25,993 bases of DNA from a virus. Lineage: Duplodnaviria; Caudoviricetes. Positions 2,315 through 20,327 of this stretch are shown here, piece by piece. Position numbers and translations under genes: made by a program. The stretch's first letter is position 1. The number at the start of each line of letters is the position of its first letter. The notes under the pieces were generated by a model, which searched no databases, had not been told where the DNA came from, and saw only the letters and a list, made by a program, of their open reading frames with translations. The stretch covers positions 1 to 25,993 of the IMG/VR virus record IMGVR_UViG_3300046757_000313, one strand, 5' to 3'.

Positions 2315-2556
2315 ATTTAATCTTACTTTTTTCATTTGGCACCGTAATCTGGTTTATTTCTACAGATCAAAGTGTTGCCGAATTTGTAGTATTAGTGGGA
2401 GAATATATAAAGACAAAAACACGGATATATTGGTGGTGGGTAACCAACAATCCAAGAAATCCCATTGTAAAATTTTCAATTAACAGAAGGTCTCATCGAG
2501 AGGCTAAGAAATTACTCAAGATAATTAATGAAGAACGCAATCGTAATCCCAGCTAG
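2305..2556 (+). CDS. Small hypothetical membrane protein (83 aa)
   Basis: Hydrophobic N-terminus, basic C-terminus, overlaps both neighbours. Confidence 0.7.
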   Translation: MELNLILLFSFGTVIWFISTDQSVAEFVVLVGEYIKTKTRIYWWWVTNNPRNPIVKFSINRRSHREAKKLLKIINEERNRNPS

Positions 2557-3238
2557 ACTTTACAGTCAAAGACTTCCGAAGAAGGCTATGATTGATATTG
2601 AAGGTAAAACCTTAATCCAAAGAGTAGTCGGACAATGCCTTAAAGCGGATCTACCTGTTTACCTTATTACTGATAGTCAAGAAATTGCTGACTCCGTGTG
2701 TCCTCGTAGGACCACGGTTCTTTTTTTGAGAGAAGAAGCATGTTCGGGAACAGAAAGAATTGCAAATGCAATTGATATGATTTCTGCAGATGGTATTATT
2801 AATGTTCAAGGTGATCAACCGTTCGTTGATCCTCAAGAGATCTTGGTCATGAATGAACACCTGATTGCAAACAATTCAATGTATCCCGTGATCACACCAT
2901 CCAAGATCTACGAGAGGGATCATCCTTATGCAAAGGATCCGAACAAAGTTAAAGTTGTTACTGCTAGGTGTGGTCGTGCTCTCTATTTTAGTCGTCATGC
3001 CATCGGGGATGAGAGAGTTAGAATACACATGGGAATTTATGGATATCGACGATCGGTATTAGAAAGGTATCAATACATGAAACCAACTCCTCTGGAACAA
3101 AGAGAGAAGTTAGAACAGTTGAGATTCCTTGAAAATGACGTTTCGATTTACAGTTACGAAACAGAAAGGGATCTGTTTTCTGTAGACACGCCAGAAGACC
3201 TAGAACACGCTAGAGAGATAGCCTGGGAATACGACTAG
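2528..3238 (+). CDS. kdsB: 3-deoxy-manno-octulosonate cytidylyltransferase (CMP-KDO synthetase)
   Basis: VIPARLYSQRLPKK, SGTERI, INVQGDQP, PNKVKVV, ALYFSR, HMGIYGYR, EKLEQLRFLEN, SVDTPEDL motifs. Confidence 0.95.
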   Translation: MKNAIVIPARLYSQRLPKKAMIDIEGKTLIQRVVGQCLKADLPVYLITDSQEIADSVCPRRTTVLFLREEACSGTERIANAIDMISADGIINVQGDQPFVDPQEILVMNEHLIANNSMYPVITPSKIYERDHPYAKDPNKVKVVTARCGRALYFSRHAIGDERVRIHMGIYGYRRSVLERYQYMKPTPLEQREKLEQLRFLENDVSIYSYETERDLFSVDTPEDLEHAREIAWEYD

Positions 3239-3934
3239 GGGTATTTGAGAGTATCGGTCTGAGAGTGCCCTAGAAGGATCTGGATGCACCTCAGCAAAGA
3301 ATGCTTCCGCACCCCAGATCTTTGCACTCTGTGCAAGAGGTTGTGCATAAAACCAGTTACCACCAGTTGTAGATTCTCCACCTTCTTGAGTAGAGTGAGT
3401 TGAATCGAAACAAACTTTGAATCCAGCACTCTTCAGTTTATGAATGGTTCGGAAGTCAACCACTAGGTTGTCATAACCGAAAGATGTACCACGTTCGCAG
3501 ATATAAAAGTCTTCACAACCATATGCTTCCATGTTCTCACCTAGGAGAATTGCCTGACGAGGGGACATAAATTGACCCTTCTTGACATTGACTAATTTGC
3601 CAGACTCTGCAACTGCTTGAAGCAAGTCGTTTTGACGACACAAAAATGCAGGGATCTGGTATGCGTCTACATAGTTGGAAAGGACTGCAACGTCTTGTGG
3701 TTCATGGACATCGGTGATAACTTTGTAACCTGCATCACGCAGTTTCTCAAAGATCTTAATTGCAAATCCAAGTCCATGTCCACGAAAACTTTTATAACTG
3801 GATCGGTTTGCCTTGTCAAAGGATGCCTTGAAGTAATAATCTACACCTTCGGGTAGATTCTCAGTAATAGTTTTCGCTACCAGGAATGCATCTTCTTCAG
3901 ACTCTAGTAGACATGGACCTGCAAATAGTTTCAT
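3200..3934 (-). CDS. kdsA: KDO 8-phosphate synthase (2-dehydro-3-deoxyphosphooctonate aldolase)
   Basis: AGPCLLES, FKASFDKANRSS, TDVHE, QIPAFLCRQ, NVKKGQF, ERGTSFGY, FDSTHS, EVHPDP..ALSD motifs; Cys in AGPC suggests the metal-dependent class. Confidence 0.96.
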   Translation of the reverse strand: MKLFAGPCLLESEEDAFLVAKTITENLPEGVDYYFKASFDKANRSSYKSFRGHGLGFAIKIFEKLRDAGYKVITDVHEPQDVAVLSNYVDAYQIPAFLCRQNDLLQAVAESGKLVNVKKGQFMSPRQAILLGENMEAYGCEDFYICERGTSFGYDNLVVDFRTIHKLKSAGFKVCFDSTHSTQEGGESTTGGNWFYAQPLAQSAKIWGAEAFFAEVHPDPSRALSDRYSQIPLVVFPGYLSSVF

Positions 3935-3938
3935 TCTA

Positions 3939-3966
3939 TGTTATACTTCTTTCACTAATTATACCA
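3939..3966. promoter_or_regulatory. Pair of overlapping, oppositely oriented extended -10 sigma70-type promoters
   Basis: + strand TG-T-TATACT (3939-3947); - strand TG-G-TATAAT (3966-3958); both in or at the edge of the 31-bp gap between divergent genes. Confidence 0.55.
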
Positions 3967-4862
3967 TGATGGCACAGTATTTTCCAGAGTACAATAGATT
4001 AAGAGAGTGTTGGGTTGGTCGTGCATACGATTCTTCACTCGTAACTGATACATTTGTTAAAGATATCCTTGACGAAACCGAAGAGGATCTGTCAAACTTT
4101 AGTCAAATGCTAAGAGATTTGGAAGTCGAAGTCAAACGACCGACTTATAAAAATCCCGATGTAACTCGGAAACCACAACTTCTACATGCACGGGACCATC
4201 TCCAGTATCTTAATGGCAAACTTTATGTTGGTCCAAGGTATGAAGACAATATTGATGATTGGTTGGAGTTGCTTGATAATCGAACTCCTTTTGTCACTCT
4301 GGATAATCTCTGTGCGCCTTCTGTAGTTCGTGCCGACAGAGTTTACTTTGATGCAGTATCATGGACACGTAAACGTTTTGAGTATTTTCAACATGGGAAT
4401 CCTGATCTGCCTTGTGTTTATGAGCGACTCTCTTCTCGCGATTTTAACATCGAACGTCATACAGATGGTGTATTCTGTGTAGTCAAAGAAGGTGTAATTA
4501 TCTCCACTCCACAAGGACGTAACCTAGAGTATCTGTTCCCAGAATGGGATATCCTGTATCTTGATCAGAATACTGAAGATCTTAATGATATGGCGAAGAC
4601 CAAGGGCAAGTTTACTTGGTCTGCAGATCAGATTCCTGATGATTACCGAGATTGGGTAGGATATTCACCCGAAACTTTCTTTGATGTCAATTCACTTGTT
4701 GTTGATGAGAAACACTTTATGTGTACTCGATATAATAAACAAGTGTTTGATTTTCTGAAGAAACATAAGGTAGAACCCATCATTGTTCCTTTCCGACATA
4801 GATATTTGTGGGACGGTGGACTCCATTGTATGACGTTTGATTTTATTAGAGATGCATATTAA
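3966..4862 (+). CDS. Amidinotransferase-superfamily protein (divergent)
   Basis: EY..LRECWVGR, ETEEDL, ARD, HTDG, FDVNSLVVDE and C-terminal WDGGLHCMTFD with the catalytic Cys. Confidence 0.85.
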   Translation: MMAQYFPEYNRLRECWVGRAYDSSLVTDTFVKDILDETEEDLSNFSQMLRDLEVEVKRPTYKNPDVTRKPQLLHARDHLQYLNGKLYVGPRYEDNIDDWLELLDNRTPFVTLDNLCAPSVVRADRVYFDAVSWTRKRFEYFQHGNPDLPCVYERLSSRDFNIERHTDGVFCVVKEGVIISTPQGRNLEYLFPEWDILYLDQNTEDLNDMAKTKGKFTWSADQIPDDYRDWVGYSPETFFDVNSLVVDEKHFMCTRYNKQVFDFLKKHKVEPIIVPFRHRYLWDGGLHCMTFDFIRDAY

Positions 4863-5544
4863 TAGTAGTCTTTATAACGCTGATATCATTCATGAACCTT
4901 GGCCCTATACAGTTATTGATGATTTTTTCACTAAAGATACTTGGGAAAAGTTAAGTCAAATACCAAAGTATATTTTATCGGATACTCCTAATGAATATTT
5001 GAGAAACTGTATTGAGAAAGCAAAACACACTGAAGTTGGTGGAAAGGTATTTAATATCTGGGAACTTATTCAATCTGGAGTTCCCGAAGATATTGTTGAG
5101 TGTTATTGGGATGCATGTCAAGAAATTTTAGAAAACAAAGAAAAAATTTACGATCAGTTTCCTTCACATAAACCTGATGTGAGTTCATTGATGAAACCAT
5201 GTTTGAACTTAGACTTCAAAGGAAATTGGTATGAACCGCATCCAGATTCTGACACAAAAGTCATTAGTCTTATTTGTTATCTTGATCCAGAGGAAAGTGA
5301 AGGTACTGCATTGCATACTGACGAAACCCATGATAATATGGTAGAGAGACTGGATTGGAAACCAAACAGATGTATGATTTTTTGTCCAAGTGAACATACT
5401 TGGCATTCTTTTCGATGTCAGTCTGAACATAGATTAGTTCTTGCTATGTTTGTTGAACGTTATATGATTAATAATAAGAAAATTAAAGACAGACACACAT
5501 TTTCTAACGGTAAAGTCGCTGAGTTCTGGTATGATTATGGCTAA
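4852..5544 (+). CDS. 2OG-Fe(II) oxygenase superfamily protein
   Basis: EPWPYTVIDDFF N-terminus, HPD...TWHS...R facial triad, WKPNRCMIF; ATG 4852 preferred over the ORF-track start at 4837. Confidence 0.85.
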   Translation: MHINSSLYNADIIHEPWPYTVIDDFFTKDTWEKLSQIPKYILSDTPNEYLRNCIEKAKHTEVGGKVFNIWELIQSGVPEDIVECYWDACQEILENKEKIYDQFPSHKPDVSSLMKPCLNLDFKGNWYEPHPDSDTKVISLICYLDPEESEGTALHTDETHDNMVERLDWKPNRCMIFCPSEHTWHSFRCQSEHRLVLAMFVERYMINNKKIKDRHTFSNGKVAEFWYDYG

Positions 5545-5767
5545 AATTGAAGTCGGAGATTACGTCAAGTACATGGGATGTACAAAAGAACAAATCCGTT
5601 GGGGTAATAATGATGATCCAAGTGGTCAACTTATGATCAATAGTGTATACTATGTGACCAACGTAAATATTAGGTCATCTCATACCAAAATCTCTTTGCG
5701 TGGCATTCAGGGTAGATTTAACAGTGTATGCTTTGATGTCTTAAGTGGAGGATATGATTATAAATGA
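5531..5767 (+). CDS. Hypothetical cyanophage protein
   Basis: ORF coupled to both neighbours; GCTKEQIRWGNNDDP...FNSVCF. Confidence 0.75.
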   Translation: MIMAKIEVGDYVKYMGCTKEQIRWGNNDDPSGQLMINSVYYVTNVNIRSSHTKISLRGIQGRFNSVCFDVLSGGYDYK

Positions 5768-6729
5768 AAAAGATTCGTAGGGTAATTCAAAAAGACCAGA
5801 ATCTTATGCATTTGACCTGGATGGTCAATAACATTTGTCAGAATAAGTGTGCCTATTGCATTCCTGGACTGAATAGTGGTAAAGGACACCACTATAAGTG
5901 GGAAAATGCAAAAAGATTCATGGATATTCTTTTTGAAAAATATCCTAAGATTCATTGTTCTGTTACTGGTGGAGAACCAAGTATCAGTTCTTTCTTTCCA
6001 GAACTAGTTCAACGATTTGTTGATGCTGGTCACACTATAGGAACAACCACAAACGGATTTAAACCTGTAGAGTATTGGAAAGAAATTTCTAAGAATCTCA
6101 GTTATGTTTGTTTCTCATATCATCCAGAACAACCAACAGAAGATTTTCTAGATAAAGTTCTTTATTGTTCACTCAATACAATGGTGACAGTAAGAATCAT
6201 GATGCATCCTAGATACTGGGATCATTGCGTAGAAGTTTATAATGATATTAGAAATATTCCAACAATCTTTGTAGAACCTGTTCGATGTCTTGATTGGGGT
6301 AGCGTTGATAGAACTGTTCACTTATATGACGAAAACCAACTTGCATGGTTTAGAGATGTAGAGTCTTCTCTTGGTCATGAAAAATACTTAGAGACTGACG
6401 AAAAGTTTAATAGAACTCCAGACATCGCTGCCGACTTCGAGATGGATGATGAAACCATTGAGAGGGGTACAAATACTCTGAATTATATTAACTCAGGTCA
6501 AACAAACTTTAAAGGGTATGTTTGTGAAGTTGGTTTGAAGAGTTTGTTTATTGATCACTCTGGTGAAATCTTCTTGGGTAATTGTTGCATTGGTGGACCA
6601 CAGGGTCACATGGATGAACCAGATCAAATTGAATGGCCTACCAAGAGGGTAATTTGTTCAAAACATATCTGTCACTGCTCCATTGATGTCAACATAAATA
6701 AGTGGACTAGGGGATATTTCAGAAAATGA
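5764..6729 (+). CDS. Radical SAM enzyme with Cys-rich C-terminal (SPASM/twitch-like) domain
   Basis: CQNKCAYC (CxxxCxxC), TGGEP, TTNG; C-terminal C...GNCC...CSKHICHC. Confidence 0.92.
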   Translation: MKKIRRVIQKDQNLMHLTWMVNNICQNKCAYCIPGLNSGKGHHYKWENAKRFMDILFEKYPKIHCSVTGGEPSISSFFPELVQRFVDAGHTIGTTTNGFKPVEYWKEISKNLSYVCFSYHPEQPTEDFLDKVLYCSLNTMVTVRIMMHPRYWDHCVEVYNDIRNIPTIFVEPVRCLDWGSVDRTVHLYDENQLAWFRDVESSLGHEKYLETDEKFNRTPDIAADFEMDDETIERGTNTLNYINSGQTNFKGYVCEVGLKSLFIDHSGEIFLGNCCIGGPQGHMDEPDQIEWPTKRVICSKHICHCSIDVNINKWTRGYFRK

Positions 6730-7064
6730 GAGTTGACAAACCCTGGGGGTGGTATAAGGATCTTGAACGAACACCCAATCTTGTTATCAAAAAGATTTGC
6801 ATTAAACCTTTCTCTAAGTTTTCACTTCAAAAACATTCCGAAAGAGAAGAATTCTGGTATATTGTCAGTGGATGTGGTAGACTGACTCTTGATAATACGC
6901 TTCACACGGTTGGACCTGGTGACTCTTATAAAATTGAGAAAGAACAAGTCCATCGGTTGGAAGCATATGCTGATGGTATAACTTTTGTGGAGGTGCAAAG
7001 TGGAGAATGTAGAGAAAACGACATCTACAGAATCGAAGACGACTACGGAAGAGAAAACTCTTAA
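6726..7064 (+). CDS. Cupin, mannose-6-phosphate isomerase type II C-terminal-like
   Basis: KPWGWY, SLQKH..REEFW..V.G, HRL, EVQSG...ENDIYRIEDDYGR. Confidence 0.9.
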   Translation: MRVDKPWGWYKDLERTPNLVIKKICIKPFSKFSLQKHSEREEFWYIVSGCGRLTLDNTLHTVGPGDSYKIEKEQVHRLEAYADGITFVEVQSGECRENDIYRIEDDYGRENS

Positions 7065-7197
7065 ACCACCGATCCCTAACCTTATAATGTTGGGCTTGTT
7101 TTTACTCGGCACTCTTGGTATAATCTATAGTGGTTATGTACATGGGCAAATGCACTTGTTGACAACACTAAAAAACGCTAGAGATCTTTATGTCTAA
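7039..7197 (+). CDS. Small membrane protein; start uncertain (ACG 7039, ATG 7087 or GTG 6985)
   Basis: One hydrophobic helix LIMLGLFLLGTLGIIYSGY followed by HGQMHLLTTLKNA; fills the gap between flanking genes. Confidence 0.6.
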   Translation, partial: TTTEEKTLKPPIPNLIMLGLFLLGTLGIIYSGYVHGQMHLLTTLKNARDLYV

Positions 7198-7381
7198 AGA
7201 AGAACGTAACACCCGTCATAGCGTTGATAAGGGTGAAGACTTTATTAAAAGTGGTATGACTCTTATCACAGACACTGTTAGTGATAAGTATCTCAAATCC
7301 CCAGTACGACCACATAAAACTATTAGTGATCTTGAGAAAGATCATGCAAAAAAAGGCGGAGATTACGGAGTAGGTAAATGA
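7190..7381 (+). CDS. Hypothetical protein (63 aa)
   Basis: ORF with ATGA overlap to talC. Confidence 0.7.
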   Translation: MSKEERNTRHSVDKGEDFIKSGMTLITDTVSDKYLKSPVRPHKTISDLEKDHAKKGGDYGVGK

Positions 7382-8025
7382 AAATCTTTCTTGATACTGC
7401 AGATTATGATGCAATCTCTATGAGATATGACACTGGTCTTCTCGATGGAGTTACAACTAATCCCAGTCTGATTAAAAAGAGTGGTGAGGATCCTTTTGAG
7501 GCAATCAAAAAAATCTCAGAATCCTTTCCAACACTGCAGTCTATCTCTGCCGAGGTAGTTGCAGATATGGCATGTGACATGGTTGAACAGGCCAAACCTT
7601 TCATGGAACTAGATAATGTAACGATTAAAGTTCCTTGTACTGTTGAAGGTCTCAGAGCTTGTCGTCAATTGCGAGATCTTGGTGCAACGGTCAATGTTAC
7701 TCTTATTTTTTCTGCTGCTCAGGCTGTACTTGCTGCTAAGGCTGGTGCAACTTACGTCTCTCCTTTTGTCGGTCGTCTTACCGATAATGGTTTTGATGGT
7801 CTTGAACTGATTAAGACGATCTATGAAATTTATAGGAAAGATGGGTGTCAGACGGAAATTCTTTCTGCATCTGTTCGTAGTCCTGAGGTTGTTGCACTCT
7901 GTTATCGTGAAGGTTCTGATATCGTAACAATCCCACCTGGAGTTTTTGATCGTATGTATGAAAGTGTCCTAACTAGAGAAGGTCTTGCTATCTTCCAGAA
8001 AGATTGGGATTCTATCAATAAGTGA
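7378..8025 (+). CDS. talC: Transaldolase, phage TalC/FSA type
   Basis: MKIFLDTAD, GVTTNPSLI, TIKVP (Schiff-base Lys), NVTLIFS..QA.LAAKAGATYVSPFVGR. Confidence 0.96.
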   Translation: MKIFLDTADYDAISMRYDTGLLDGVTTNPSLIKKSGEDPFEAIKKISESFPTLQSISAEVVADMACDMVEQAKPFMELDNVTIKVPCTVEGLRACRQLRDLGATVNVTLIFSAAQAVLAAKAGATYVSPFVGRLTDNGFDGLELIKTIYEIYRKDGCQTEILSASVRSPEVVALCYREGSDIVTIPPGVFDRMYESVLTREGLAIFQKDWDSINK

Positions 8026-9961: not shown

Positions 9962-10583
9962 AGATAAAGCCATCTATGTTGATGGTTTTGTTGTACAACC
10001 TGCCGATATGAGTTGGTTTAATCCAGATGATTATGACCGAAAAGTTAATGCAATTCAGTGGGAGGAAGATCGTGGTGAGATTGAATATGTAGATGGACCT
10101 CCTACTTCCATCGATAATATTGACTTTTTAAAAGATGTAATTACTGTTCATCAACTTGCAAGAGAACAATTTGAGAAAGATCAAGAAACTTTCAAAAAAG
10201 AATGTGAACTGAGTACTCTTGTTGAGTACAATGGAGACGATCCTAAACTAGAGTTTGTGGACTATGATGAAACTCGCGATATTGACGAAGATAAACTAAA
10301 TGATATTCTGGATGAAATTGATTTTGATCTAGAAGATGAACCAGACAGAGGATATGCAGAATTAATCCATGCAGATGATGAAGATGGACCAGAATCTGTA
10401 GAAGATATACTTGGACTTGGGTCATTAGATCAGGAACCAGTGCCTCAAACAGAAGATAATGATATAATGCATGAAGATCTCCGTGATGCTCTTGATACTC
10501 AAGAGGATAGTTCGTATGAGATGGAAGAAGATGTAGAAAATCAAATCTACTATGACATTGAAGAATTACTCAAAGAGATATGA
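9939..10583 (+). CDS. Putative fibre-assembly-like protein with long acidic C-terminal extension
   Basis: N-terminus LTVIIEDKAIYVDG...VNAIQW...GEIEY; C-terminal half very D/E-rich; function inferred from context. Confidence 0.6.
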   Translation: MNLTVIIEDKAIYVDGFVVQPADMSWFNPDDYDRKVNAIQWEEDRGEIEYVDGPPTSIDNIDFLKDVITVHQLAREQFEKDQETFKKECELSTLVEYNGDDPKLEFVDYDETRDIDEDKLNDILDEIDFDLEDEPDRGYAELIHADDEDGPESVEDILGLGSLDQEPVPQTEDNDIMHEDLRDALDTQEDSSYEMEEDVENQIYYDIEELLKEI

Positions 10584-11728
10584 TTCCCGAACTCCAAGTC
10601 AATGATTATACTGTAGTCAGAAATTTCATTGATCAGGAAAGGGCAATAACACTGGGTTATGAATTCATGCATTTCTGTGAAGAACATGATGCTGCAGGTG
10701 ATAATCAGGCAGTAAACTCAAACTCAGTTCACAATTACTTACCCTTTCTTGAGTTACTTTGTGAAAAAACACCCGAGGTGAGTAAGATTGTTGGAGAAAC
10801 AGTTTTACCCACTTATGTTTATTCTAGAGTATATGGAAATGGTTCTGATTTAAAACGACATACTGATAAAGATGAGTGTGAGATTTCTCTTACACTCAAT
10901 TTGTGTGCAGATAGACCATGGAAAATATGGATTGAAACTCCGAAAGGCGAAAAAAGATCTGTGATGCTTGCTCCTGGAGATGCCATGTTCTATCATGGAT
11001 GTAATGCACCACACTGGAGAGATAACTATACTGGAACCTATTATACTCAAGCATTTCTACACTATGTGTATAGTAGAGGTGAACGTGTCAATTCTTACTT
11101 CGATAAGAAACGACCAGGTGTAAACAACTTTGAACGGAAAGCACCAAAACTTTTAGTAGAACCAGGAAGAGGTGAATCAATGATTAGCGATTACATCATG
11201 GTAATCAAGGGACTTGTGCCTGAAGATCTGTGCGATGATATTTTAAAAGAATTCCCAGAGAACTCTGTTTATTGGGAACCATCTTCCGTTGGTGATGGTG
11301 ATGTTCGTCGAGATGTCCGAAGTTGTAATACGATTGGATTATCTAAATTGCCATATCAAAACATGGTGTATGAGAATCTAGATTCTAGAATGTTTGAGTG
11401 TGCAGCAGAAGCAATCAAACAGTACAGAGAACGTTGGCCAGGTGTAGAAACTGGGATCGATACTGGGTATGATCTTCTTCGTTATAAGACTGGGGAGTTC
11501 TATACTCAACATACAGACTCATTCAAAGAACAACAAAGATCTGTAACTTGTTCTTTCCATATCAATGATGACTATGAAGGTGGTGAGTTTGCCTTTTTCA
11601 ATAGAGAAAAGGTATATAAATTTGAGAAAGGTGACGCGATTCTTTTCCCATCAAATTTTATGTTCCCGCATGAAATTTTGCCTGTAACTTCTGGAACACG
11701 GTACTCTATTATTACTTGGTATGTCTGA
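10580..11728 (+). CDS. Two-domain 2OG-Fe(II) oxygenase (prolyl-hydroxylase-like)
   Basis: Domain 1 LKRHTD..CEIS.T...HWR; domain 2 YTQHTD...NDDYEGGEF...FPSNFMFPHEILPVTSGTRYSIITW. Confidence 0.9.
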   Translation: MIPELQVNDYTVVRNFIDQERAITLGYEFMHFCEEHDAAGDNQAVNSNSVHNYLPFLELLCEKTPEVSKIVGETVLPTYVYSRVYGNGSDLKRHTDKDECEISLTLNLCADRPWKIWIETPKGEKRSVMLAPGDAMFYHGCNAPHWRDNYTGTYYTQAFLHYVYSRGERVNSYFDKKRPGVNNFERKAPKLLVEPGRGESMISDYIMVIKGLVPEDLCDDILKEFPENSVYWEPSSVGDGDVRRDVRSCNTIGLSKLPYQNMVYENLDSRMFECAAEAIKQYRERWPGVETGIDTGYDLLRYKTGEFYTQHTDSFKEQQRSVTCSFHINDDYEGGEFAFFNREKVYKFEKGDAILFPSNFMFPHEILPVTSGTRYSIITWYV

Positions 11729-12494
11729 TAAACTTAACGGTCTCCCAATGGTATATTGGTTGAGTTGTGACACAGATAGAATCGCTCGTATGGAATCCCA
11801 GTTTGATAAGTGGGGTATCCAAAATCAAAAATTTTGGTTTGGTAGTTTAAGGCCAGATCATTATGAAATGTGGAAAGATAAGGTATTCAAACCAGAATTA
11901 ATTCATCCAAGAGATTATCGATCCACATGTATTACGATCTCTACACTTGAGATGATTCGTTATTGGTTGGAGAATACCAATGACAAATATCTGATTCTAA
12001 TGGAAGATGATTATGATTTAGATCTGATCGAATATTGGCACTTCGATTGGAAAACTCTGATGAAGAATCTTCCCTATGATTGGGATTGTATTCAGTTGGG
12101 ATTTGAATCACAAGAATATATTTCTTTCTTCCTTCATCCAAAGACAAAACATAGTGCATTTGGACCTGTAATGATCAACAGGTGGTTTGCGGAGAAACTA
12201 CTTCGTATTCATACTGTTCAGAGAAAATACTTTTTCCTCAGGAGATTTGCTGGATATCCTGGTATTCGTTCTCTTGATATTGACCACTTCTTCGGATTTG
12301 TAGGCAGAACATATCAGATGCCACTGATCACTCAAGATCCTTACCTAGATAAAGTACCAAAGAAACATCACTTTGTCTGTAGAGATCTTTACTACGATTG
12401 GTGGGAAAATGAAAGAGATAATTACACTCTCAAAGAATTCTTCACTTATGGTAAACCTAACGACGGTGAAATGACTAAAATTGTTCGTTTATGA
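11721..12494 (+). CDS. GT25-like glycosyltransferase, paralog 1
   Basis: VYWLS....R...ME.QF, LILMEDD, LPYDWDCIQLG. Confidence 0.75.
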   Translation: MSDKLNGLPMVYWLSCDTDRIARMESQFDKWGIQNQKFWFGSLRPDHYEMWKDKVFKPELIHPRDYRSTCITISTLEMIRYWLENTNDKYLILMEDDYDLDLIEYWHFDWKTLMKNLPYDWDCIQLGFESQEYISFFLHPKTKHSAFGPVMINRWFAEKLLRIHTVQRKYFFLRRFAGYPGIRSLDIDHFFGFVGRTYQMPLITQDPYLDKVPKKHHFVCRDLYYDWWENERDNYTLKEFFTYGKPNDGEMTKIVRL

Positions 12495-13258
12495 AGTTAT
12501 CTAATCTACCTCCCATCTATTACCTCAATCTCCAAGAGAGGGAAGAGAGACGAGAGTATATGGAGAAGCAGTTTAAGAAATATGAGATCCGTAAGTGGAG
12601 ACGTTGTAACGGTTCTATTTTTGGTGAACAAAACTATGAACATTGGAAAAAGTTAGTTCTCGATGATGTTCTTAGGACTCCGAAAAGATTTTATAGTGTA
12701 CTGTTGAATCGATCTGAGATGATCGCTAACTTTCTCTTTGATCTAGATTCTGATATTGTTCTTCTATTGGAGGATGACTTATCTTTTCATACGGAAAGAT
12801 ATTTGAATTTTGAGTGGGAAGAGTTTATCGAACGTCTACCTCACAATTGGGATTGCGTTCAACTTCATATCATCGGTGAGAAGTTCATGCCTCTGACACT
12901 TTCACCTTGGTCGGTGAACAATCATAGTGCTGCAGCAATCTTGATTAATAAAAGGTATGCAGATAAGTATGTGAATATGTTCATGGAGAATGGTAAGTGG
13001 AGATTTCTGAACAACTATGGATACAGTAATGATATCCCTCAGTATCACTACCACTCTGCAGACTTCATCCCATATCAAGTAGGTACTACGTATTCTTTCC
13101 CTATGTTTGTAACCAACTCTAAGTTTGAGAGTGATGGTGCTGGAGTCAATGCCTTAGCTAAACGATCTGACGCAACTGTGTTAGAATGGTGGAAGAATAA
13201 TGAAAAGAGTTTGGAAGAAATGATGTATCTTGATCGTCCGATGTTCGCTCAACTATGA
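12491..13258 (+). CDS. GT25-like glycosyltransferase, paralog 2
   Basis: IYYLNL..REERREYMEKQF, LLLEDD, LPHNWDCVQL, SAAAILINKRYA. Confidence 0.8.
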   Translation: MKLSNLPPIYYLNLQEREERREYMEKQFKKYEIRKWRRCNGSIFGEQNYEHWKKLVLDDVLRTPKRFYSVLLNRSEMIANFLFDLDSDIVLLLEDDLSFHTERYLNFEWEEFIERLPHNWDCVQLHIIGEKFMPLTLSPWSVNNHSAAAILINKRYADKYVNMFMENGKWRFLNNYGYSNDIPQYHYHSADFIPYQVGTTYSFPMFVTNSKFESDGAGVNALAKRSDATVLEWWKNNEKSLEEMMYLDRPMFAQL

Positions 13259-14097
13259 AACTGAAAGGTCTTCCGACTTTATATTATCTGAATCTAGACG
13301 AACGACCAGATCGTAGGGAATACACAGAACTGCAGTACGACGAGTTGGGAATCACTAACTTCAAGAGATTTTCTGCGTCTGAGTATCAGTATCCAGACTT
13401 CGTTGATTGGAAACATAGAGTCATCCTCAACGATATGTCTGAGTGTGTTCGATGGAGACAACATATCCTAGAGATTGGTACTGCAATCTGCACTCTGGAT
13501 ATGATCAAACATTGGTTGACTACGACCAATGAGAAATATCTCCTATTGATGGAAGATGACTACGATTATCGATTCGTCAAGTATTGGCACTTCGATTGGG
13601 AATATTTGATGAATCATATTCCTTTTGATTGGGACTGTATTCAACTTGGATTTGAGAATGAACATGAGATTCCATGTTTCTTACATCCCATTAGATCACA
13701 TCATGATTACGGTCCTGTTCTGATCAATAGACCATATGCAGAGAAGTTGATGAGACTTTTTACAGATGGTGATCAATATAACTTCTCTCACAGAATTCAG
13801 AATTATAAGTGGGGAAAGATGTTGGATATGCCAAATAGGACTATTGATTATTTTATGTGTCACTCAGGTAATACATACTGTATGCCATTGATTAGTGTCA
13901 ATCCTCATATCGGTAGTTACGCTAAAAACATTGTAAGAAAAGACCGACCAGACTTGGAACTTGCCAGAAAGGCATATAATAAGTGGTGGACTGTTATGCG
14001 CGATGAGTATACTCTGGAAGAGTTTTTTATGTACGGTAAACCAAATGATTATGTGATCACTCCAGAAGAACCTGACATCGACGATTATTATGTTTGA
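13255..14097 (+). CDS. GT25-like glycosyltransferase, paralog 3
   Basis: YYLNLDERPDRREY, RFSA, LLMEDD, PFDWDCIQLG. Confidence 0.8.
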   Translation: MKLKGLPTLYYLNLDERPDRREYTELQYDELGITNFKRFSASEYQYPDFVDWKHRVILNDMSECVRWRQHILEIGTAICTLDMIKHWLTTTNEKYLLLMEDDYDYRFVKYWHFDWEYLMNHIPFDWDCIQLGFENEHEIPCFLHPIRSHHDYGPVLINRPYAEKLMRLFTDGDQYNFSHRIQNYKWGKMLDMPNRTIDYFMCHSGNTYCMPLISVNPHIGSYAKNIVRKDRPDLELARKAYNKWWTVMRDEYTLEEFFMYGKPNDYVITPEEPDIDDYYV

Positions 14098-14686
14098 ACA
14101 TGTAAGACACTTTGAGAAACAAATTGCAGACTTCTATGGTGCTCCATATGCAGTCGCAACAGATTCTTGTACTCATGCAGTTGAACTTTGTTTGAGGTTG
14201 CACCGCCCTTCAGTGGCATCTCTACCCAAACATACATATCTTTCCATTCCAATGACATTTATGAAGTTGGATATTCCCTTTATATGGACCCATCGTAAGT
14301 GGAGTGATATGTATACTATCAAGGGTACTAATATAATTGATGCTGCGGTTCTATGGGAACCAGATAGTTACCAATCAGATACCAATATGTGTCTGAGTTT
14401 TCAATTTAAGAAACATCTTGGATTGGGACGAGGTGGTATGATTCTTACAGATAATGAAAAAGACTATCATGAACTCCAGAAGATGTCCTATGATGGTAGA
14501 GATACGACTAAACCCTGGGCGGAACAAGACATCACTACGATTGGATATCATTACTACATGACCCCAGAAACAGCTATTGAAGGTTCACACAAGTTTGAAT
14601 TAGTTAAGAATTTGTTACCACAAGCTTGGTCATGGAAAGATTATCCTGACCTATCAAAATTAACGGTATTTCAATCAATTCTATGA
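14090..14686 (+). CDS. Short DegT/DnrJ/EryC1/StrS-family PLP aminotransferase
   Basis: FE..IA.F.GAPYAVATDSCTHAVELCL, IIDAA, SFQFKKHLGLGRGGMILTD, GYHYYM. Confidence 0.85.
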   Translation: MFEHVRHFEKQIADFYGAPYAVATDSCTHAVELCLRLHRPSVASLPKHTYLSIPMTFMKLDIPFIWTHRKWSDMYTIKGTNIIDAAVLWEPDSYQSDTNMCLSFQFKKHLGLGRGGMILTDNEKDYHELQKMSYDGRDTTKPWAEQDITTIGYHYYMTPETAIEGSHKFELVKNLLPQAWSWKDYPDLSKLTVFQSIL

Positions 14687-15189
14687 AACATATAGAACCT
14701 AAGTGGAATATTGATGAATTTCGCAAGTTAGATTATACTCGCGCAACTCATAACGATCCCCTACTCGTTACCGAATATCTATGGGCAGGACATGATAAGA
14801 ATAAACTGTCAATATATAAGTACCATGAACCTAAACCCATGCCAAAGTGTATGGATTATATTAAGGAACACTTTTCTTTTTGGTCCGATGTATGTGTTGC
14901 AGTAAACCATTTTACACCTGGACAATATCTACCCATGCATACCGACTTATATGGAAGATATGTTGAAATGACTGGGGCATCACCCTGTTTTATAATGCGA
15001 TGTATGGTTATGCTTCAGGATAGTTCTCCTGGACAAATCCTACAGATCCGAGATGATTGTCATGGTAAATGGTCCGCAGGTGATTGTTTTTACTGGGACT
15101 ATGATGCACCACATGCGTTCTACAATATGAGTATGGTTCCGAGATACGCAGTTCAAGTTACAGGTGTTTGTAATGCATATCCGATGTAA
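14683..15189 (+). CDS. Cupin-fold / 2OG-Fe(II)-type hydroxylase-like protein
   Basis: PGQYLPMHTD ... W.AGD...W....PHAFYN....RY..QVTG. Confidence 0.7.
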   Translation: MKHIEPKWNIDEFRKLDYTRATHNDPLLVTEYLWAGHDKNKLSIYKYHEPKPMPKCMDYIKEHFSFWSDVCVAVNHFTPGQYLPMHTDLYGRYVEMTGASPCFIMRCMVMLQDSSPGQILQIRDDCHGKWSAGDCFYWDYDAPHAFYNMSMVPRYAVQVTGVCNAYPM

Positions 15190-15949
15190 AATTTCAAGTA
15201 TTGATATACACATCACTCATCGATGTAACTTCACTTGTGATAGTTGCGCTCACTTTGCAAATCACAAATTCACAGGAGAAGTTACTTTTGATAACTTCAG
15301 GGAATGGGTAGATCTTTGGAAAGATAAACTTGATCCAGATAATATTGGTATACTAGGTGGTGAACCATTCTTAAATCCTAGAGTTGATGAGTACTGTGAA
15401 TATGCAAGAAAATCTTTTCCAAATTCTAGGATAGAACTAGTAACAAATGCATTTATCTTGAAGGATATATCTGAAACTCTGATTAAAAATGATATAGTTC
15501 TTGCAGTATCTGTTCACCACAACAACCCAGAATATAAGAAAACTCTTGCAAAAAACAAAAAAATTATTGAGAGTTGGGGTGTTAAGGTAGAATATTGGAA
15601 TAGTTTTCTGAGATGGCAAAAAGTTTATAAAGGATATGGGGAAGATATTGAACCCTATGAAGATAATGATCCAGAAAGTAGTTGGAATCACTGCCCTACT
15701 GGGCAGAACTGTTTCCAACTTCATGAAGGTAAAATGTGGAAGTGTGCGCCCTTGGCGTTCTTGCCAATGATGAATGAAAAGTATAAACTGTCTGAAAAGT
15801 GGAATAGATACTTAGAGTATGTTCCTCTGTCGTCAGATTGTACGACTGAAGAACTACAAAACTTTATCAATCGTGGTGCAGAATCTTATTGTTCTATGTG
15901 TCCATCTAAACCACAATATTTTATGAAAGACATGCCTTATGGGAAGTAA
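15173..15949 (+). CDS. Radical SAM enzyme with C-terminal Cys cluster
   Basis: CNFTCDSC, LGGEPFLNP, VTNA; C-terminal HCPTGQNC...KC...YCSMCP; ATG 15173 preferred over GTG 15164. Confidence 0.92.
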   Translation: MHIRCKISSIDIHITHRCNFTCDSCAHFANHKFTGEVTFDNFREWVDLWKDKLDPDNIGILGGEPFLNPRVDEYCEYARKSFPNSRIELVTNAFILKDISETLIKNDIVLAVSVHHNNPEYKKTLAKNKKIIESWGVKVEYWNSFLRWQKVYKGYGEDIEPYEDNDPESSWNHCPTGQNCFQLHEGKMWKCAPLAFLPMMNEKYKLSEKWNRYLEYVPLSSDCTTEELQNFINRGAESYCSMCPSKPQYFMKDMPYGK

Positions 15950-16901
15950 GAATGAATGGGGGCAACTCCGAAAAGTAATTGTAGGTCATGCTGAGGGTGC
16001 GAGAGTTCCTGAAATGGATAGAACTTTACGTCTAATCAACTATGCAGATCGTGAGGATGTTTCTGATGTTCCTTCTGGACTATACCCTCAACAGGTTATT
16101 GACGAAGCAAATCAAGATCTTGAGTTATTGGTAGATCTTTTCATCCAACTTGGAATTGCAGTTGGTAGACCTCATTATGAACCCACACCATACTATAATT
16201 ACTGCCCTAGAGATCTCGTATTTGTCCATGGTGATAAGACTTATGCAACACCCTCTCCACTGAAGGCAAGACAATTTAATTTTGGATCTATTTCCCATCA
16301 CTTCAATCAGTTGACTCCCATTACTCCCTCATATGAGACGGGATTATATAATGACAACTGTGTGGGGAATAAAGATATTCTTGCATTGACGGAAGAATGT
16401 CCTGCATTTGACGCTGCAAATGTTATTAGAGCGAATGATGATATTCTCTACTTGGTATCCAATAGTGGTAATATAAAAGGTGCTGAGAAACTGCAATCAC
16501 TCCTACCCGATGTAAAAGTGCATCTTTTGGAGGGAGTTTATAGTTACATGCATATAGATACTACAGTTGCATTTTTGAGGGAAGGATTGCTTCTCGCAAA
16601 TCCAGAAAGGATTAAAGATAGAGATGTTCTACCTGGACCATTCAGAGATTGGGATATCATTTGGTGTCCAGAACCTGTTGACATTGGTCACTATCCTGGT
16701 TATAATCATGCTTCAGAGTGGATAAATATGAATTTGTTCAGTATTAATCCAAATTTGGTGGTACTGGAAGAACATCAAGAACCAACCAGAAAGGTTTTGG
16801 AGAAACATGGAATTGAATGTGCTATGTTACCCATGAGACAGTCCAGAACTTTAAGTGGTTGTTTTCACTGCGTTACCTTAGATCTAGAAAGAGATGACTG
16901 A
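15939..16901 (+). CDS. Amidinotransferase (glycine / inosamine-phosphate amidinotransferase family)
   Basis: NEWGQLRKVIVG, NYCPRD, FDAAN, SNSGN, HIDTT, WINMN, GCFHCVTLDL; Asp-His-Cys triad present. Confidence 0.93.
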   Translation: MGSKNEWGQLRKVIVGHAEGARVPEMDRTLRLINYADREDVSDVPSGLYPQQVIDEANQDLELLVDLFIQLGIAVGRPHYEPTPYYNYCPRDLVFVHGDKTYATPSPLKARQFNFGSISHHFNQLTPITPSYETGLYNDNCVGNKDILALTEECPAFDAANVIRANDDILYLVSNSGNIKGAEKLQSLLPDVKVHLLEGVYSYMHIDTTVAFLREGLLLANPERIKDRDVLPGPFRDWDIIWCPEPVDIGHYPGYNHASEWINMNLFSINPNLVVLEEHQEPTRKVLEKHGIECAMLPMRQSRTLSGCFHCVTLDLERDD

Positions 16902-19348: not shown

Positions 19349-19377
19349 ATAAAGTGTTCGTGTTGATACGAAGACAC

Positions 19378-19406
19378 TTGACTAAATATTGTATGAGGTC
19401 TATAAT
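19378..19406 (+). promoter_or_regulatory. Near-consensus sigma70 promoter
   Basis: TTGACT-N17-TATAAT; predicted start near 19413, just before the structured RNA. Confidence 0.8.
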
Positions 19407-19415
19407 GAGACCTGA

Positions 19416-19641
19416 CGTTCATCCGAGAGATCGGACGCAAGTAAGTCGCGGAACGGAGCCGTTCATCCTATGTTAGAATTATTATTCTATTCACAACTCA
19501 CATGTGCTCAAGCCGATTCAATTATGTTTCGGATGAGAACAAATGAGAACATTCCTGCCGAATATAAGGTGGAATTGATTGAGGTCATGAAGGAATCAAC
19601 CCCTGATTGCTACCCATGGGACGCAAACGACTGAAGGAACG
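19416..19641 (+). ncRNA. Tandem glutamine-riboswitch-like RNA (glnA / Downstream-peptide type), two aptamer-like copies
   Basis: Copy 1: CGTTC-A-TCCGA-GAGA-TCGGA-CGCAAGTAAGTCGCG-GAACG (19416-19455). Copy 2: CGTTC-A-TCCTATG...CATGGGA-CGCAAACGACTGAAG-GAACG (19460-19641). Lies between a promoter and a YRGxxY peptide gene. Family assignment is from recall of the motif, not from a covariance-model search. Confidence 0.65.
19470..19634 (+). CDS. 54-aa protein nested in RNA copy 2 (MLELLFYSQLTCAQADSIMFRMRTNENIPAEYKVELIEVMKESTPDCYPWDAND), not in ORF track
   Basis: Translated by hand; GGAG about 10 nt upstream of ATG 19470; stop TGA at 19632-19634. Confidence 0.7.
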   Translation: MLELLFYSQLTCAQADSIMFRMRTNENIPAEYKVELIEVMKESTPDCYPWDAND

Positions 19642-19705
19642 GGAAAAAACGGATCCTCGGAAACGAGAGAAGGTTAATTTTCACCCAACTTCAGGAGTAA
19701 CAATC

Positions 19706-19873
19706 ATGAATACACTTAATCTCATCAGAAAGCAGATCAACAAAGCATCTGCACTTCACGACGCACAGATTACCCACACCTCATATCGTGGTGTTGAGTA
19801 TTCTACCCGTTGTGTAGAAAGTAAGGAAGCCCACGGTACATTCTGCTATCGCGGTAAGACTTACACTAAGTGA
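19706..19873 (+). CDS. DUF4278-like small protein (55 aa)
   Basis: AGGAG RBS before ATG 19706; two YRG motifs (YRGVEY, YRGKTY). Confidence 0.75.
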   Translation: MNTLNLIRKQINKASALHDAQITHTSYRGVEYSTRCVESKEAHGTFCYRGKTYTK

Positions 19874-19892
19874 TTAGTAAACTTACTTAACG

Positions 19893-19918
19893 GAGAGGTT
19901 TTATACCTCTCTTTTTTT
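19893..19918 (+). terminator. Rho-independent terminator
   Basis: GAGAGGT-TTTAT-ACCTCTC followed by T7. Confidence 0.85.
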
Positions 19919-19958
19919 ATGTCTATAAAAACTAAATACTCATACGTTGCGAACATTT

Positions 19959-20327
19959 ATGGATCTTCTCCAATCGCCCGATGAATACTTGTTTAACCTG
20001 TACACAACAAGTTCATCCGAAGCTCGACGATTGTGGAAAGACCGAATAAAAGAAAGTTGGGATAATAAGTGCGCCTATTGTGGTTCGGAAGAAAATCTAA
20101 CACTAGATCATGTTGTTCCACATTGTAGAGGTGGATCAGATATGACAAAAAATATTGTATGTTGTTGTAGTTCGTGTAACCAATCAAAGGGACATGAACA
20201 CTGGAAGTTATGGTATATTCAACAGGATTTTTATAATGAAGATAATTTTAATAAAATAGAAGACTGGATGGAACCACCCGCACCCATCCTATATCGTATA
20301 AGAAGAAGAAGAAATATAAATTATTAA
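19959..20327 (+). CDS. HNH endonuclease
   Basis: CAYCG....LTLDHVVP..RGG.D...N.V.CC..CN..KG; ACTAAATA upstream at 19931-19938. Confidence 0.92.
   Translation: MDLLQSPDEYLFNLYTTSSSEARRLWKDRIKESWDNKCAYCGSEENLTLDHVVPHCRGGSDMTKNIVCCCSSCNQSKGHEHWKLWYIQQDFYNEDNFNKIEDWMEPPAPILYRIRRRRNINY

Follow-up and report, generated by a model that had tools for sequence, protein, structure and literature searches.

A tandem glutamine-riboswitch-like leader of marine cyanophages with a small gene enclosed in the P2 loop of an interlocked core

Introduction

Can the aptamer of a glutamine riboswitch hold a whole gene in one of its loops, and what would the RNA and the gene then do to each other? The question is raised by a stretch of viral DNA of 25,993 nucleotides (Caudoviricetes; IMG/VR record IMGVR_UViG_3300046757_000313, positions 1 to 25,993), which is termed the window here and is a piece of a T4-like marine cyanophage genome. 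A first-pass annotation had proposed that two copies of one aptamer frame lie on its plus strand and that a 54-aa open reading frame (ORF) occupies the P2 loop of the second, and both statements were borne out when the letters of the window were read again. Copy 1 is composed of CGTTCA (19416-21), TCCGA-GAGA-TCGGA (19422-35) and CGCA...GGAACG (19436-55), and copy 2 of CGTTCA (19460-65), TCCTATG (19466-72), CATGGGA (19615-21) and CGCA...GGAACG (19622-41); the loop of the latter measures 142 nt and contains the ORF (19470-19634), which ends in WDAND-stop. It is held here with high confidence that the RNA structure and the gene status of this element are real, widespread and well supported.

The Two-gene Unit and Its Distribution

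The genes flanking the element are members of phage families, and the unit itself runs on the plus strand from a sigma-70-type promoter through the RNA with the 54-aa ORF to a 55-aa DUF4278-like ORF and a terminator-like hairpin. The promoter, TTGACT-17-TATAAT (19378..19406), agrees with the consensus at 11 of 12 positions, has a predicted start site near 19413 and is overlapped by a T4-late-like TAAATA (19383-88); among the relatives, -35 and -10 peaks stand at a fixed distance and TAAATA occurs in 137 of 247. An NtcA-like box, GTT-N8-TAC (19356..19369), has its centre some 50 nt before the predicted start site and deviates by one mismatch from GTA-N8-TAC, a consensus taken from PMC3037559, where NtcA boxes in cyanophages are already in print. 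The strict form was found in 119 of 247 distinct upstream regions of relatives, compared with 2.4 in shuffles. The unit ends at an intrinsic-terminator-like hairpin with a U tract (19892..19920, hairpin 19892-19912).

Relatives were collected by several routes. A pattern in which CGTTCA is joined to the copy-2 3' half over 4-30 nt was searched in viral sequences and disclosed 120 loci (95 distinct) where this half closes a short hairpin without an ORF; among the matches listed, these compact loci have the same first copy upstream and a similar small ORF downstream. A loop-blind sample, selected by the copy-1 3' half alone (119 loci, of which 118 could be parsed and 115 were distinct), contained a long second loop in 99 distinct loci, a compact one in 12 and an intermediate one in 1, with 3 not available, and the first loop was long in 29 of the 115; either P2 loop can thus be found empty or filled. 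When loci were chosen by protein similarity alone, both RNA halves flanked the ORF in 64 of 66 distinct loci, the two exceptions being a locus cut by a contig end and one with a variant 3' half. All searches together gave a pooled set of 286 distinct tandems, 196 with a long second loop and 90 compact.

Relatives of the nested protein were found in 313 phage records, which are without exception Synechococcus, Prochlorococcus or 'Cyanophage' entries. By estimate, about 2,100-2,300 IMG/VR stretches harbor the element, and reading the nitrogen status of the host through it may therefore be common among marine cyanophages. A search of 185,579 prokaryote genomes found the 3' half 5 times; 3 of these, among the matches listed, have the same nested layout. 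Two occurrences are on contigs, L645 (194 kb, from a Synechococcus MAG) and L646 (188 kb, from a Nonlabens assembly), that may be phage genomes carried in the assemblies.

The Interlocked Fold

The first-pass annotation had placed two aptamers one after the other, each closed by its own P1. This part of the description was not upheld, and all discriminating variants favour a different fold, shown by covariation among the relatives, in which an outer glutamine-I aptamer encloses an inner, circularly permuted core. The outer P1 5' strand CGUUC (19416..19420) pairs with 19637-19641, as it does in the Rfam alignment of compact relatives, and is followed by the outer-core P2 UCCGA-GAGA-UCGGA (19422..19435), which in other phages is the loop site of a paralogue of about 66 aa. 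The outer junction CGCA, the E-loop 5' strand AGUA and the P3 5' strand AGUCG lie at 19436..19448, with P3 completed by 19628-19632 and the long-range 23-60 pair of the outer core formed by C19438 and G19642. Between them stands the circularly permuted P1 hairpin of the inner core, GAACG-GAGC-CGUUC (19451..19464), which holds GGAG (19455-58), and the nested ORF is the P2 loop of this core. The 3' half (19615..19642) comprises the inner P2 3' arm (19615-21), CGCA (19622-25), the P3 3' strand (19628-32), the E-loop GAA (19633-35), G19636, the outer P1 3' strand (19637-41) and G19642, and the same letters code for P-W-D-A-N-D-stop.

Several features of the relatives point to pairing across the two copies. 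Six of 10 compact tandems pass in Rfam as one aptamer that begins with the 5' strand of copy 1 and closes with the 3' strand of copy 2, and in the four alignments shown the E-loop consists of copy-1 AGUA and copy-2 GAA. P3, in which copy-1 AGUCG pairs with copy-2 CGACU, has compensatory changes at three pairs, G-C being replaced by A-U at pair 2 in 7 of 196 long forms and at pair 5 in 4 of 196 long and 16 of 90 compact forms. The inner P1 is swapped to copy-1 3' strand CAACG with copy-2 5' strand CGUUG in 8 of 259 parsed loci, the outer strands remaining unchanged. The 23-60 pair, a contact described as critical in PMC6212724, varies in 5 of the 286 tandems; in all 5, position 23 of copy 1 and the base after copy 2 change jointly, so that C-G becomes G-C, and position 23 never tracks the base after copy 1. 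Six further rows with a seemingly changed copy-1 5' strand were all excluded, 4 of the 6 having been checked and found to be parsing errors.

In alignment A6, a set of 69 diverse loci with the ORF, pairing of the interlocked model amounts to 98.8%, compared with 27-50% in slid controls, and the double changes in the model fall on 9 pairs and 32 cells as against 2.1 and 3.7 in shuffles (0/500). A misaligned 5' end makes six rows of A6 count against either fold, and P3 pair 3 is mismatched in 11 of the 69 rows. The inner core keeps C1, G22, C58 and G59 together with its own C-G long-range pair; it is without an E-loop, the two sides of its junction are CGCA-AA and a single C, and its P1 hairpin runs 3' strand first.

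Class Membership and Known Systems

The glnA-type identity proposed at the outset is supported by the compact relatives that pass RF01739 and by the covarying pairing of the outer core. At gathering level Rfam returned 0 matches in the window, where copy 1 reaches 23.1 bits against RF01739 (gathering score 35), a model that does not span the insert, and copy 2 has no match. The gathering score is attained by 6 of 10 compact relatives, at 38-46 bits, and by 0 of 10 ORF-bearing loci, and since the ORF-bearing form dominates (99 of 115 distinct loci in the loop-blind sample), annotation misses the element. In the interlocked reading, and only there, the outer core has the three-way junction of P1, P2 and P3 with the E-loop AGUA/GAA; it also lies in the leader of a DUF4278-like gene and can alternate with a helix that blocks the ribosome-binding site. 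The bases C1, G22, C58 and G59, named as glutamine contacts in PMC6698751, are invariant or nearly so in both cores (A6, besides its six misaligned rows). The inner core departs from glutamine-I by having no E-loop beside P3 and a strand order other than the normal 5'-to-3' one; judged on its bases it works like a glutamine core, and it is not filed as a member of RF01739. Glutamine-II (RF01704) was considered and rejected, the window scoring 20.7 of 33 bits with non-standard or unpaired positions in the second helix, and the threshold of 33 being reached by 0 of 20 relatives.

Coding frames situated in a peripheral loop of a folded RNA are familiar from the loop ORFs of group I and group II introns and from the tag frame of tmRNA. 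The element differs from both in having no catalytic RNA, nuclease or maturase and no observed splicing, its RNA being a putative metabolite sensor, and in that the first and last codons of the ORF belong to the sensor itself.

Compared with the glutamine-I riboswitch, for example the gifB/IF17 leader of Synechocystis as described in the accessible part of PMC6212724, the element has in common P1 CGUUC/GAACG, P2, the E-loop, P3 and the 23-60 pair, as well as the contact bases, a DUF4278 gene downstream, an NtcA-type promoter box and a predicted translational ON switch. It is unlike glutamine-I in being phage-borne, in a P3 that leads into a second, permuted core instead of a loop, in the whole gene within its P2 loop, in the C-G identity of its 23-60 pair and in the score of the window below the Rfam threshold; moreover, its switch strand is the E-loop/stop-codon strand, whereas glutamine-I uses the bases that follow position 60 for this purpose. 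Tandem glutamine riboswitches (PMC2864571; PMC9481103; PMC5066625), of which 157 doublets and 4 triplets are given in PMC9481103, likewise contain two cores a few nucleotides apart. The accessible portions of these papers present them as serially arranged aptamers and identify no expression platform, whereas the cores described here are interlocked by a shared P3, enclose ORFs and are accompanied by a covarying platform. Glutamine-II (Downstream-peptide, RF01704) of marine Synechococcus and Prochlorococcus has the same pocket bases, a C-G long-range pair (C19:G41 in PMC6698751), a short DUF4278 ORF and the same hosts, but it possesses a pseudoknot architecture from which the phage element is free; as far as the accessible text goes, the hosts are reported to have only type II, while the phage uses a type-I fold.

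The literature already describes, according to the accessible sources, both tandem arrangements and the occurrence of glutamine riboswitches in cyanophages. The 2010 motif alignment (PMC2864571, supplement 5) enters compact phage-type halves as aptamers of their own, and none of ten strings from the interior or the end of the ORF was found in that alignment, as far as the accessible supplement shows. For an ORF within an aptamer, the interlocked fold and the present platform, no description was found in the searchable full-text literature, which covers few subscription papers.

The Nested Gene

The nested ORF (19470..19634, plus strand; 54 aa, phrog_504) encodes a protein with a hydrophobic N-terminus and a predicted two-helix hairpin between two invariant cysteines, which AlphaFold models with a pLDDT of 83. 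An ORF of at least 40 codons with exactly two cysteines is present in 196 of 196 long second loops and starts 4 nt into the stem in 189 of them, and the dN/dS of 0.23 (62 disjoint pairs) shows, at the level of sequence comparison, that it is a real gene under protein-level selection. The linker reads GGAG in 170 of 196 ORF-bearing forms versus 6 of 90 compact forms, and GGAG at 19455-58 is likely the Shine-Dalgarno sequence of the nested ORF. Its product is probably, from sequence and model, a small membrane-associated or exported disulfide hairpin.

Database comparisons placed the protein in no characterised family: the Pfam search gave no family, Foldseek against the PDB gave 0 of 7 matches at E<=0.001, viral structures matched only uncharacterised cyanophage proteins, and the ESM Atlas returned hypothetical clusters only. 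Eight matches from the PDB sequence search (E 0.87-3.1) were all judged to be chance. Four giant proteins among the 150 profile matches listed were rejected as well, having only many weak repeats (one of them HEAT/ankyrin), and a match in S-CRM01 (E 0.09), a candidate homologue at most, is the N-terminus of a 223-aa gene without a surrounding aptamer. P0193 had no match in phage records.

The last codons serve two readings. An RNA-level constraint on the WDAND codons had been suggested and is upheld by codon usage, the terminal Asp codon being GAC in 157 of 157 cases versus 59 of 370 internally and the terminal Ala codon GCA in 161 of 161 versus 176 of 471. In 7 of 196 relatives, e.g. S-CAM1, a stop codon precedes the 3' half and the RNA half is nevertheless intact, which indicates that the constraint acts on the RNA.

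The Stem Closing around the Gene

The inner P2 5' arm (19466..19472), which overlaps the start codon, pairs with 19615-19621 across the whole gene. The covariation expected for this long-range stem was found, with 40 double-change cells in the 196 ORF-bearing relatives against a shuffle mean of 5.0 and maximum of 14 (2000 shuffles); these counts refer to related sequences, not to independent events, and the statistics ignore kinship. Together with the ORF-less compact loci that have the same 3' half, the covarying stem places the layout beyond chance. Pairing at positions 1-4 is intact in 783 of 784 cells, and pair 5 forms in 176 of 196 relatives. The stem of 7 bp, TCCTATG/CATGGGA, drawn in the first-pass annotation therefore stands in part: pairs 1-5 are general, pairs 6 and 7 form in only 102 and 115 of 196, and the general stem amounts to 4-5 bp. 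Its arms occur as TCCC/GGGA, CCCC/GGGG, TCCT/AGGA, TCTT/AAGA, TTCC/GGAA, TCTA/TAGA and GATT/AATC, variants that are spread over several of 22 protein clusters (55% identity), and CCCC/GGGG changes the protein end to WGAND. The most divergent stem, GATTATG/CATAATC, belongs to L344 and L381, whose loops have a frameshifted length and whose nested ORF reads through the 3' half to 92 aa.

The Downstream Gene and the Predicted Expression Platform

A DUF4278-like gene had been claimed downstream, and it is present as a 55-aa ORF (19706..19873, plus strand; phrog_545), which matches PF14105 over residues 25-53 with E 3.4e-4 and a score, 21.3 bits, under the cut-off of 25.3; the gene is DUF4278-like by motif in 277 of 286 loci, and its protein has relatives in 372 phage records. 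From sequence likeness, the product is probably an IF17-like modulator of host glutamine synthetase; picocyanobacterial DUF4278 proteins are described, in the accessible literature, as being without the glutamine-synthetase-binding part of IF17.

The switch strand CUGAAG (19631..19636) contains the nested UGA stop and in the ligand-free state would pair with CUUCAG (19689-94) of the target strand (19689..19697), which overlaps the Shine-Dalgarno sequence AGGAG (19693-97) of the downstream gene. For 187 of 196 relatives the last base of the nested stop is 13 or 16 nt inside the 3' half. The general form of the helix is CU(G/A)AAG with CUU(C/U)AG, its third pair over 209 distinct leaders being G-C in 97, A-U in 69, G-U in 40, G-A in 3 and A-C in 0, and folding predicts it in the window with a probability of about 1.0. 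Of the long forms the first 60 were folded and all 60 form it, as do 65 of 71 compact forms. Covariation of the paired strands shows this stop-codon/Shine-Dalgarno helix, which would be the expression platform. The outer aptamer requires the same six switch bases for its P3, E-loop and pocket, and the two folds are therefore mutually exclusive, which leads to the prediction of glutamine-ON control of the DUF4278-like gene. Such a mechanism is likely from the sequences, and the ON direction measured for gifB and DP leader reporters (PMC6212724) agrees with it. According to the accessible part of PMC5066625, no expression platform or benefit of the tandem is known for tandem glutamine aptamers; the shared-helix fold with its covarying platform is a possible answer to this point.

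Positions 19643-19688 of the window form an optional insert between the aptamer and the downstream ribosome-binding site, which is absent in many relatives, and the stem pairs of its GNRA hairpin CTCG-GAAA-CGAG (19656-67) vary among relatives.

Folding Models

Nearest-neighbour models, in which E-loop, tertiary and ligand terms are missing, put the bound fold some 10 kcal/mol higher than the free ensemble, at -74.4 versus -84.0 in the window and with a median gap of +10.2 over 148 loci. Glutamine binding of millimolar affinity may, on these models, be too weak to cover such a gap. The mean probability of the outer P1 in the ligand-free state is 0.94-0.96 without the downstream leader and 0.01-0.02 with it, while that of the ORF-closing stem is only 0.09-0.27 in the window and has a ligand-free median of 0.96 in the relatives.

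Predicted effects on the start sites are small, because the stem is weak in the window models and already formed without ligand in most relatives. Between the free and bound states the mean unpaired probability of the DUF4278 start moves from 0.55 to 0.58 (more open in 85 of 148 loci, less in 39), the compact forms being divided almost evenly (n=71; 27 more open, 24 less), and that of the nested start moves from 0.33 to 0.29; in the window the respective changes are 0.50 to 0.62 and 0.52 to 0.28. Glutamine control of the nested gene is plausible and rests on anatomy, for its GGAG contains G59 and G60 of the inner pocket.

Proposed Mechanism and Alternatives

The reading that we prefer, with somewhat better than even confidence, is an interlocked two-core leader whose inner P2 closes around a 54-codon gene and in which glutamine would likely turn on the DUF4278-like gene through the stop-codon strand. 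Without glutamine, CUGAAG (19631-36) would pair with CUUCAG (19689-94) and the DUF4278-like gene would be off; with glutamine, the bases of CUGAAG would go to the outer P3, E-loop and pocket, and the downstream ribosome-binding site would be freed. The inner pocket would be built from the nested Shine-Dalgarno bases G19455 and G19456 and adjoin the start-codon stem, so that glutamine held there would repress the nested ORF more tightly. To translate the last six codons of this ORF, a ribosome would have to unfold both cores, whereby sensing and translation would compete on one RNA, and a ribosome ending at the nested stop would melt the anti-Shine-Dalgarno helix and could couple the two genes. 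If this is true, the aptamer is complete only once a whole gene has been transcribed and is free of ribosomes, which breaks with the usual view of a compact aptamer in an untranslated leader. A broader version is put forward tentatively and at rather less than even confidence: in most of these cyanophages, a gene-in-aptamer switch would act as a two-pocket sensor with whole genes, up to two paralogues, as P2 loops, in which glutamine turns the enclosed genes off and the downstream glutamine-synthetase modulator on while ribosome traffic feeds back.

It is rather unlikely that the interlocked RNA regulates the DUF4278-like gene only and that the nested ORF is a passenger taken up by a tolerant loop, with a ligand-independent start stem setting a low, constant translation and thereby giving the aptamer time to fold. 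The ligand-free prediction of the ORF-closing stem in most relatives (median 0.96) is in keeping with this, as are the P2 loops that can be empty or filled, the aptamer-free homologues (3 of 62 distinct loci; Bellamy gene 59) and the non-cooperative behaviour reported for tandem glutamine aptamers in the accessible part of PMC5066625. However, the bases of the inner pocket are invariant and coincide with a GGAG that is enriched only in ORF-bearing forms, the start codon keeps one stem offset in 189 of 196 relatives, and the modelled nested start closes in the window (0.52 to 0.28 unpaired).

An improbable alternative takes the nested ORF mainly as a leader peptide: ribosomes terminating on it would open the CUGAAG/CUUCAG helix and so carry translation over to the DUF4278-like gene, whose output would depend on glutamine or on nested translation. 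The position of the stop codon inside the switch strand in most relatives (187 of 196) speaks for it; against it stand the 7 of 196 relatives, S-CAM1 included, that stop before the 3' half with the RNA intact, the amino-acid-level selection with two invariant cysteines, the ORF-less compact forms that keep the same platform, and the first-loop paralogue, which ends far from the switch strand.

Lower still stands the view that the fold is real and senses another ligand or a protein, or that only one pocket still binds glutamine. The inner core has no E-loop and the Rfam score is sub-threshold, as this view would have it, but both cores retain the glutamine contacts C1, G22, C58 and G59. A serial arrangement of two separate aptamers, each with a P1 of its own, is very improbable: this sequential fold, which was tried and rejected, is equal to the interlocked one in predicted window energy (-74.6 versus -74.4) and accords with the separate rows of the 2010 alignment (PMC2864571, supplement 5), but it breaks exactly at the discriminating rows, namely the P1 swap (8 loci) and the 23-60 swap (5 loci), leaves the P3 covariation unexplained, and has a mean sequential P1 probability of 0.01-0.03 over 224 aptamer-only folds. 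It is scarcely credible that the ORF is either a selfish mobile element, comparable to a homing gene carried by an intron loop, or a segment removed from the RNA by splicing, for although filled and empty loops occur at the same site and one family occupies two equivalent loops, the product has 54 aa, no nuclease, reverse transcriptase or other Pfam domain and no solved-structure match, and the RNA-library contigs of locus L017 (4 sets), a kind of data that drops rare forms, run through without joints.

The Paralogous Gene and Irregular Loci

The interlocked leader with its enclosed gene has a counterpart in other phages, where an ORF of about 66 aa (phrog_6471; gp196 in the syn9 record) fills the first P2 loop. 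This ORF was present in all 45 long first loops that were counted, where the flanking arms covary in their own right (L169, L400 and L404 were left out of the count, the parser having caught an internal motif), it has a dN/dS of 0.18 (13 pairs), and it is related to the nested family at an HHalign probability of 91.7% (E 7.6e-7). Homologues outside any aptamer were found in 3 of 62 distinct loci (L650-L652), and Bellamy gene 59 is an aptamer-free homologue among other small genes. The existence of such free-standing homologues suggests that a family of small genes was captured into P2 loops. Locus L017, which has ORFs in both P2 loops, is found in four RNA-library contig sets and is unbroken in three, its strand, start and level not being readable from contigs; in run X4, short high-depth contigs over the junction are not interpretable.

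Several loci depart from the common layout. L092 (about 130-445) has an array of three cores, the first and third compact and the middle one holding a phrog_6471-type ORF. In a long-linker class (L309, L319, L336, L364, L401, L321 and others) the ORF ends in DAKAD or similar and the two P3 strands are near-identical 8-mers, for which a symmetric mismatched duplex or two local mini-hairpins are possible. First P2 loops of intermediate length, one of them with ORF-form arms, occur in L202 (S-RIM2, about 1120-1165), L648, L425 and L452 and are possible remnants of ORF loss, and L475, L686, L519 and L499/L606 are partial copies in which copy 1, a part of the junction or copy 2 is missing.

Upstream of the aptamer, the window has an inverted repeat, AGGTCT-ATAATG-AGACCT, around the -10 box (19396-19413). 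In 221 of 247 relatives, compared with 25% of shuffles, the 30 nt immediately preceding the aptamer contain a Watson-Crick stem of at least 5 bp; its sequence differs among relatives, and it may be the 5' hairpin of a late TAAATA transcript or a protein site. The unit lies between nrdB and talC in several cultured phages (L201, L202, L205, L207), and in the window between small unknown genes and an HNH endonuclease gene (19947-20327). Elsewhere in the window, translations of 2528-8025 and 10580-16901, judged by eye, include KDO-pathway-like, radical-SAM-like and amidinotransferase-like proteins, a transaldolase, a 2OG-Fe(II) oxygenase-like protein and several glycosyltransferase-like ORFs.
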